DNA of 64,000 nt from Alphaproteobacteria bacterium (GTDB lineage: Bacteria > Pseudomonadota > Alphaproteobacteria > CAAHEQ01 > UBA3637), in the NCBI GenBank assembly GCA_045598925.1, contig JAZRVC010000027.1, positions 847 through 64,846 on the forward strand, given 5' to 3'. Position 1 is the first letter of the stretch; each line of letters starts with the position of its first letter. Position numbers and translations under genes: made by a program. A model generated the notes under the pieces. That model was not told the origin of the DNA, did no database searches, and saw only the letters and a list, made by a program, of their open reading frames with translations. Positions 26,121 to 26,148 of the stretch are shown here, in pieces.

Positions 26121-26148
26121 TGTGTGTGTGTGTGTGTGTGTGTGTGTG
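26121..26148. repeat. (TG)14 dinucleotide simple-sequence repeat, 83..110 nt upstream of the 23816..26038 gene
   Basis: A perfect 28-nt run of alternating T and G, with no interruptions. Confidence 0.95.

Follow-up and report, generated by a model that had tools for sequence, protein, structure and literature searches.

Does a long dinucleotide repeat in front of a gene for a secreted, lectin-like protein make the expression of that gene heritably variable? The question is raised by a stretch of 64,000 nucleotides from an alphaproteobacterial contig (JAZRVC010000027.1; the whole stretch is called the window below), in which a perfect (TG)14 microsatellite stands upstream of a gene that encodes a protein of 740 residues, referred to here as the lectin-like gene. 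Given the length and rarity of the tract, its position and the kind of gene that follows it, we consider it likely that this slippage-prone repeat makes the expression of one member of a gene family heritably variable. As to how, we tentatively propose a switch at the level of the leader RNA that would operate through the reading frame of a small leader open reading frame (ORF) and through a hairpin; of this specific part we are considerably less sure. What was computed here comprises the tract, the leader ORF in each of its frames, the hairpin with its free energy, the scores of the promoters and the fold of the protein; the coordinates of the features are collected in Table 1.

On the plus strand, positions 26120..26150 read T(TG)14TT, that is, 14 perfect TG units with no interruption. 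The original prediction, which was made from the sequence alone, had described a perfect 28-bp TG tract located 83..110 nt from the start codon of the lectin-like gene, and both the tract and the distance were confirmed. Such a run is far beyond chance. From the base composition, 2e-10 dinucleotide runs of at least 14 units are expected in the window, and in 100 dinucleotide-preserving shuffles the longest run was 6 units (mean 4.2). Within the 64 kb the tract is the sole dinucleotide run of at least 5 units, and in 60 fetched loci (1.06 Mb, mostly from related bacteria) such runs reached a maximum of 7 units. A cutoff of 6 units is used to predict phase-variable dinucleotide repeats (PMC6321876); the 14 units found here amount to more than twice that number, a length such as is expected of a contingency locus. 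The position likewise agrees with a contingency locus: the gene is monocistronic, and the tract is situated in the single intergenic region on its 5' side. By these sequence-level features (repeat type, length, position and, plausibly, gene class), the locus is a candidate repeat-driven contingency locus. Slipped-strand mispairing at replication would alter the tract by one or more 2-bp units, and the resulting change in expression would be heritable and reversible, in the fashion of known contingency loci.

To locate the tract relative to the start of transcription, candidate promoters on the gene's strand were scored in a simple position-weight scan with weights derived from Escherichia coli. 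The best score in 281-nt windows of the window sequence served as the random reference (median 7.6 bits, 95th percentile 11.8 bits). The original prediction had pointed to a -35 hexamer, TTGTCA, immediately beside the tract. This hexamer is indeed the reverse complement of 26108..26113 and lies 7 bp from the tract, and with a spacing of 16 nt it can be paired with GATATT, which overlaps the left arm of a palindrome described below. As a promoter, however, TTGTCA-16-GATATT scored 7.8 bits, a value at the median of random windows, whereas a site 4.8 bits better, TTGACT-17-TAAAGT, was found upstream of the tract. The 12.6 bits of the latter lie above the 95th percentile of random windows and are comparable to the scores of the local tRNA promoters. 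Since both tRNA genes of the window have canonical promoters, a sigma-70 consensus model is reasonable for this organism. (Most of the 17-nt spacer of the tRNA-Glu promoter consists of a T11 run, 55529..55539 on the tRNA's strand.) The predicted start of TTGACT-17-TAAAGT at ~26211 would give a leader of ~172 nt with the tract inside it. With the better promoter candidate located upstream, transcription of the tract is more likely than a position of it beside the promoter.

On its other side the tract faces a divergent gene of the cytidylate kinase family (cmk), whose ATG lies 155-182 nt away from it. Between the tract and cmk, at 26178..26219, runs of T5-T7 recur with a period of ~11 bp (period 11, 3.9 copies according to Tandem Repeats Finder). 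This may be intrinsically bent DNA that overlaps the candidate divergent promoters.

These features bear on the model of the original prediction, in which the tract sits upstream of the -35 of TTGTCA-16-GATATT (start at ~26079) and 2-bp changes shift spacing and helical phase. The shift would be relative to the A/T-tract-rich DNA or to an activator site and would switch or grade transcription, and the palindrome would be a repressor operator. The two hexamers do exist at a short distance from the tract, the T runs are found beyond it, and a perfect 10-4-10 palindrome that overlaps a -10 is arranged as operators typically are. Repeats that lie between genes and upstream of promoters form, moreover, a known class of phase variation (PMC6321876). 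On the other hand, the score of the hexamer pair is that of random sequence, GATATT lacks the conserved first T of a -10, and the spacer is 16 nt. In a second, simple scan, promoter sites were no commoner than in shuffles (11 sites versus 8.2 +/- 3.1), and no upstream activator site was identified. We regard this model as unlikely.

If transcribed, the tract could also act by its length, whether as a loading site for Rho, as a CA-multimer translation enhancer or as a spacer in folding or processing of the leader, and the outcome would be a graded control of volume. In keeping with this, the best promoter candidate lies upstream of the tract, and (CA)14 is C-rich, free of G and unpaired in the predicted centroid fold. 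C-rich repeats are used as Rho loading sites (PMC5021804), and the hmw repeats are transcribed, with expression inversely proportional to repeat number (PMC12721329). However, the structure of the leader is unremarkable (z = +0.40), and if the leader ORF described below is translated, ribosomes would cover the tract in every frame and block Rho. Control by length alone seems to us quite improbable.

A fourth use of the tract would be structural. Under transcription-generated negative supercoiling in E. coli, (TG)n of such length can adopt Z-DNA, and the alternating purine-pyrimidine tract, which sits between divergent genes, might serve as a supercoil sink between the lectin-like gene and cmk and so couple or buffer their promoters, any change in its length being incidental. 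If the promoter at 26246..26218 is used, however, the tract is downstream of the start and not between two polymerases, and for cmk, as a housekeeping gene, no need of such coupling is apparent. We give this explanation very little credit.

The leader-level switch that we favor is suggested by what the predicted leader contains. A leader ORF with its own Shine-Dalgarno (SD) sequence spans the whole (CA)14, which it reads as Thr-His repeats, together with a hairpin. Its TAA stop abuts the SD sequence GAGGA (26050..26046) of the lectin-like gene, and the region of its own SD and ATG resembles that of the lectin-like gene. When the flanks were shuffled, an ORF with SD and ATG that crossed the tract and continued for at least 60 nt was obtained in 0.9% of cases. 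The hairpin is a perfect inverted repeat with a calculated free energy of -13.5 kcal/mol (z = -3.05), and 1 of 200 shuffles was as good. As a perfect palindrome it is unique in the window (0.02 expected), and a terminator scan flagged it as terminator-like. It may be either a terminator-like element within the leader ORF or a palindromic operator. The idea that it terminates a separate small gene was rejected, the stops of both long frames being downstream of the hairpin. A scan of the intergenic region against Rfam gave no known RNA family.

We computed the frames of the leader ORF for n = 9..19. The repeat number modulo 3 sets the end of the ORF, and one frame in three stops ahead of the hairpin (Table 1). 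That the repeat slips in this organism, that the promoter is used, that the leader ORF is translated, that the hairpin terminates transcription and that expression responds are inferences, which we combine in the following manner. Transcription would begin at TTGACT-17-TAAAGT, and the leader ORF would be translated across (CA)n. At n = 11, 14 and 17, or 10, 13 and 16, ribosomes would cross the hairpin and stop at the main SD. A ribosome on the hairpin would block termination, as in the pyrBI attenuator, and would feed the main start, giving an ON or high state. At n = 12, 15 and 18 they would stop at the early TAG and leave the hairpin free to form, giving an OFF or low state. As at pyrBI, a leader ORF with a ribosome-binding site, whose translation is predicted, would lie between promoter and gene. 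Ribosomes can suppress terminators in experiments: moving a stop codon next to a terminator reduced termination from ~90% to <10%, and termination was maximal when the stop was >27 nt upstream of the terminator (PMC4824070). In its full form, as a phase-variable attenuator in which the repeat number modulo 3 sets the passage of ribosomes over a terminator and onto the SD of the lectin-like gene, the proposal is in our opinion doubtful. Were it to hold, stochastic switching of a heritable kind would rest on the apparatus of ribosome-mediated attenuation. The leader peptide has 7 Cys codons out of 47; being Cys-rich and containing Thr-His repeats, it could possibly tie synthesis of the 76-Cys main protein to the supply of charged tRNA-Cys.

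Several observations weigh against the leader-level switch. The criteria of the shuffle test for the leader ORF were picked after the ORF had been seen, and the ORF has neither detectable homologs nor comparative support. The promoter calls are position-weight matches, made with weights from E. coli. The U-tract GUUGUUGUAUUUGUU is interrupted by G residues, which makes for a weak terminator, and the perfect palindrome could equally be the operator of a transcription factor. The fold of the entire leader is no more stable than those of shuffles (z = +0.40). Only 21 nt separate the stop of the short frame from the hairpin, whereas full termination required 27 nt (PMC4824070), and the OFF state would be leaky. 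Without a pause, moreover, ribosomes seldom catch up with RNA polymerase over the first 100 nt (PMC4824070). In our search of the literature no phase variation through a leader ORF was described, and a search for phase variation by TG/CA repeats returned nothing specific. Finally, the collections searched contain one genome of this species, and the repeat number is known from a single sequence.

The kind of gene that follows the tract was the third element of our reasoning. The 740-residue protein starts with a signal peptide (MKNVVLLFSTVLVSTVVLA/GGG at the N-terminus), followed by a conserved N-terminal block of ~200 residues, a variable middle part and a C-terminal C-type-lectin-like domain (CTLD; residues ~577-740). 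It contains 76 Cys (10.3%) and 13 CxxC motifs. The N-terminal block gave sub-threshold matches to TNFR/ephrin-receptor-like Cys-rich repeats, and a match of the protein to PF23091 (1.3e-7) was below the cutoff. The family defined by the C-terminal 164 residues is small (28 representatives in a set of 1.8 billion). We modeled residues 577-740 with AlphaFold2 from an alignment of 15 sequences and obtained a predicted local distance difference test (pLDDT) value of 86.4 and a predicted template modeling (pTM) score of 0.85. Among the top 50 matches of this model to the PDB in Foldseek, most were CTLDs or link modules, besides a few EgtB chains, with TM-scores of 0.35-0.55. The best E-values started at 6.4e-4, for the macrophage galactose lectin MGL (6puv); other matches included CD23, mannose-binding protein (MBP-C), the C-terminal domain of Bdellovibrio Bd2740 and LYVE-1. 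Weak profile matches to the PDB were likewise mostly to CTLDs. The C-terminal domain is thus predicted to adopt the C-type-lectin-like fold by which the superfamily is defined.

The original prediction had taken the product for a surface lectin or adhesin. The predicted fold and the signal peptide agree with a secreted, lectin-like protein, but the sugar-binding side of the description does not hold: the motifs EPN, QPD, WND, WID and EPS are all absent from the 740-residue protein, and Pfam Lectin_C gave no match to it. The protein lacks the Ca2+/carbohydrate motifs of true C-type lectins and is lectin-like in fold only. Neither an anchor nor an export route was identified for it. Within the gene, at 24407..24678 on the minus strand, we found an in-frame tandem duplication of 150 bp (50 residues; 1.8 copies, 98% identity). 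This could expand or contract by recombination and is potentially a second source of protein variation.

At least three proteins, conserved at the N-terminus and mosaic at the C-terminus, make up the family to which the product of the lectin-like gene belongs. A paralog of 484 residues is encoded in the window directly (18 nt) behind mlaA-mlaC; it diverges after the shared N-terminus and ends in a related WxxA..C...C domain. The level of DNA identity between the two genes (91% over 573 bp) suggests gene conversion between members of the family. A third protein, P0002 (618 residues, on another NCBI contig), is 96% identical to the lectin-like protein over its first 198 residues and continues with a rearranged C-terminal part. 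The same genome probably encodes it as a third paralog, because the cmk search shows one genome of the species on record. The two paralogs of the window are alike from the start codon onward, and their upstream DNA is unrelated; upstream of the 484-residue paralog there is no repeat, upstream ORF or hairpin. More distant homologs (~1200 residues; L055 4200..8630 and L057 4074..8513) are encoded by the third gene after one for a 167-residue protein and one for an outer-membrane beta-barrel that matches the Opacity/Surface_Ag_2 families. The beta-barrel gene, which has no counterpart at the copies in the window, hints at a partner for export or anchoring. A homolog search with the CTLD profile returned two fragments only; the contig of P0125 measures 932 bp. 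No repeats were found at the homolog loci of P0003 and P0004, and no other copy of the leader, the palindrome or the intergenic DNA was found in the window or the fetched loci. Among the family loci that are readable upstream (the upstream DNA of P0002 being left out), the tract is carried by the 740-residue copy only, which is also the one member among those with readable context that stands alone.

We also looked for relatives of this genome and for variation of the tract between strains. The best match of polA (21084..23735) had 74% identity and came from a metagenome-assembled genome (MAG) of an uncultured gut alphaproteobacterium in a Hadza sample; other good matches were to MAGs of Alphaproteobacteria from ruminant and human guts. 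The gene order is shared with the nearest relative (L001) between 11021 and the end of polA; the similarity breaks exactly before the lectin-like gene (window 23735..23816). In two other relatives (L035 and L054), polA is followed instead by cmk and a U32 peptidase gene. In a search for homologs of cmk the next relative had only 67% identity. Look-ups of the exact proteins (the lectin-like protein, cmk, the paralog and P0002) gave no records. A scan of genomes with polA again had its best match at 74%, in a genome without the lectin-like gene, and in a scan of metagenomes the conserved N-terminal domain had only two matches, both distant and partial. These searches gave no second genome of the species, which seems to be represented once across the collections searched.

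These comparisons also speak for a mutable microsatellite with no regulatory effect, which could have arisen by recent expansion or as a by-product of the rearrangement that placed this gene copy here and is tolerated between genes. The conserved gene order stops just before the lectin-like gene, the region upstream of it is unique and unlike that of the paralog, and the distant homologs have no repeats. However, the bacterial DNA surveyed contains practically no perfect dinucleotide runs of 14 units (maximum 7 units in 1.06 Mb). Long perfect repeat tracts decay fast when not under selection, which also counts against neutrality. The tract furthermore occupies the sole intergenic region from which a secreted gene that varies within its family is controlled, where it is interlocked with an ORF, a hairpin and an SD. 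A tract of no consequence seems to us unlikely.

An artefact of assembly, either a false join or a mis-sized repeat, has to be weighed too, given that the contig is evidently part of a MAG, that the nearest relatives are MAGs as well and that low-complexity repeats can mislead assemblers. Single short reads span 28 bp, however, and the genes on either side are intact. A chimeric join at the repeat was rejected: the left-hand gene has a paralog to the right of the tract (32933..34387), and polA, cmk and the U32 peptidase gene, which are neighbors in the related MAGs L035 and L054, are all on this contig. Because the gene family is present on both sides of the tract and these three genes share the contig, a false join is unlikely, and we attach hardly any weight to an artefact of either kind.

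The tract is not the only repeat of interest in the window. Some 14 kb away, a G10 run lies within an ORF for a pilin-like protein of 585 residues, the N-terminus of which weakly matches the prepilin methylation motif (PF07963, E 0.16). In the window, 0.018 G/C runs of at least 10 are expected. A change to G9 or G11 would truncate the protein at ~397-422 residues. This run is a second candidate contingency locus and suggests that the genome carries contingency loci. A G14/C14 run in L054 (17891..17904) was considered as a parallel case and rejected: it is found ~80 nt upstream of a gyrB/parE-like housekeeping gene, beside an apparently disrupted ORF, and may be an artefact of sequencing or assembly.

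Table 1. Positions of the repeat, the leader elements, the candidate promoters and the surrounding genes in the window
Feature	Position	Strand	Remarks
(TG)14 microsatellite	26121..26148	+	perfect, 28 bp; reads (CA)14 on the minus strand
Leader ORF, MKKCVKKACNSCEKSITHTHTHTHTQLVLSDYFINRYSWEYRCCCIC	26054..26197	-	47 codons; own SD AAGGA; ATG at 26197
Hairpin, ACCGATATTC-ATGG-GAATATCGGT	26094..26071	-	perfect 10-bp inverted repeat, 4-nt loop
T-rich tail, GTTGTTGTATTTGTT	26070..26056		follows hairpin; on the gene's strand only
Stop TAA, n = 11, 14, 17	26056..26054		past hairpin, beside main SD
Stop TGA, n = 10, 13, 16	26051..26049		past hairpin, inside main SD
Stop TAG, n = 12, 15, 18	26118..26116	-	21 nt before hairpin
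TTGACT-17-TAAAGT	26246..26218	-	best sigma-70-like candidate on gene's strand; 12.6 bits
TTGTCA-16-GATATT	26113..26086	-	contains the -35 of the original prediction; 7.8 bits
tRNA-Glu promoter, TTGCAA-17-TATAAT	55547..55519		11.9 bits
tRNA-His promoter, TTGACA-17-TATACT	12145..12117		15.2 bits
Lectin-like gene	23816..26038	-	740 residues; monocistronic; ATG 26038..26036
Terminator-like site	23826..23807	-	at 3' end of lectin-like gene
cmk	26303..26836	+	divergent neighbor, cytidylate kinase family; PF13189 6.6e-21, TIGR02173 1.2e-30
Paralog	32933..34387	-	484 residues; N-terminal 211 residues 87% identical to 740-residue protein; 573 bp of DNA 91%
mlaC	34406..35005	-	ahead of paralog
mlaA	35020..35784	-	ahead of mlaC
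G10 run (C10 on + strand)	40418..40427		codon 393 of pilin-like 585-residue ORF, 39846..41603(-)

Nearly all known cases of phase variation driven by repeats come, to our knowledge, from pathogens in culture, among them Haemophilus, Neisseria, Helicobacter, Campylobacter and the mycoplasmas. If the variability proposed here is real, the tract together with the G10 run would extend contingency loci to an uncultured lineage of gut Alphaproteobacteria in which none has been described, and it would suggest that a commensal varies its host- or glycan-facing proteins stochastically. If the leader-ORF mechanism is also correct, it would be a new way of wiring a microsatellite into gene control, via the frame of an attenuator peptide, and it predicts an unusual dependence on repeat number with a period of 3. 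Should the tract prove invariant or without effect, it would merely be an oddly long bacterial microsatellite.

How does the locus compare with known systems? The dinucleotide repeat (TA)9-11 of hifA/hifB also lies between divergent genes, one of which serves a surface structure, but there the repeat forms the spacer between -35 and -10, whereas no pair of hexamers brackets the tract described here (PMC2651432). The likeness to switches of the hif/porA type that had been drawn originally was therefore not upheld, and a promoter-spacer switch was excluded: with 28 bp the tract is longer than any spacer of 15-19 nt. In nadA of Neisseria meningitidis, (TAAA)n, and in vlhA of Mycoplasma gallisepticum, (GAA)n, the repeats lie upstream of the -35. 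The likeness to these two holds if TTGTCA-16-GATATT is real, but that candidate is indistinguishable from chance, and no upstream regulator site was identified. Whether the locus belongs with nadA and vlhA or with the hmw genes depends on the start of transcription.

In hmw1A/hmw2A of Haemophilus influenzae, the repeat is found ~100 bp upstream of the start of a large gene for a secreted, adhesin-type protein, as it is here; it is transcribed in the 5' leader and acts together with a hairpin of the leader RNA, as we propose for the present tract (PMC12721329, PMC2651432). The hmw repeat differs in its 7-bp unit, in its graded effect and in the cleavage by RNase III of a long hairpin that the repeats themselves form. 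The present repeat has a unit of 2 bp, its RNA is predicted to remain unpaired, and it lies inside a small ORF, so that a frame with a period of 3 could matter. In this last respect the locus is closer to oipA of Helicobacter pylori, (CT)n (PMC10564699), and MmyCI of Mycoplasma mycoides, (AG)12 (PMC3498834), in which a dinucleotide repeat lies within an ORF and a change of one unit moves the stop codon. Unlike in those genes, the repeat is part of a leader ORF of 47 codons, and the frame of the main ORF is untouched. The pyrBI operon of E. coli, with its leader pyrL, likewise has a leader ORF of ~45 codons and a terminator hairpin that can be suppressed by a following ribosome (PMC5021804, PMC4824070). 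The signal at pyrBI is UTP-dependent pausing of the polymerase, whereas the signal proposed here is a heritable change of frame by slippage. No example that combines phase variation by a repeat with a pyrBI-like attenuator was described in the literature that we searched. By analogy with these systems, the arrangement of the leader ORF resembles translational phase variation grafted onto a pyrBI-like attenuator.

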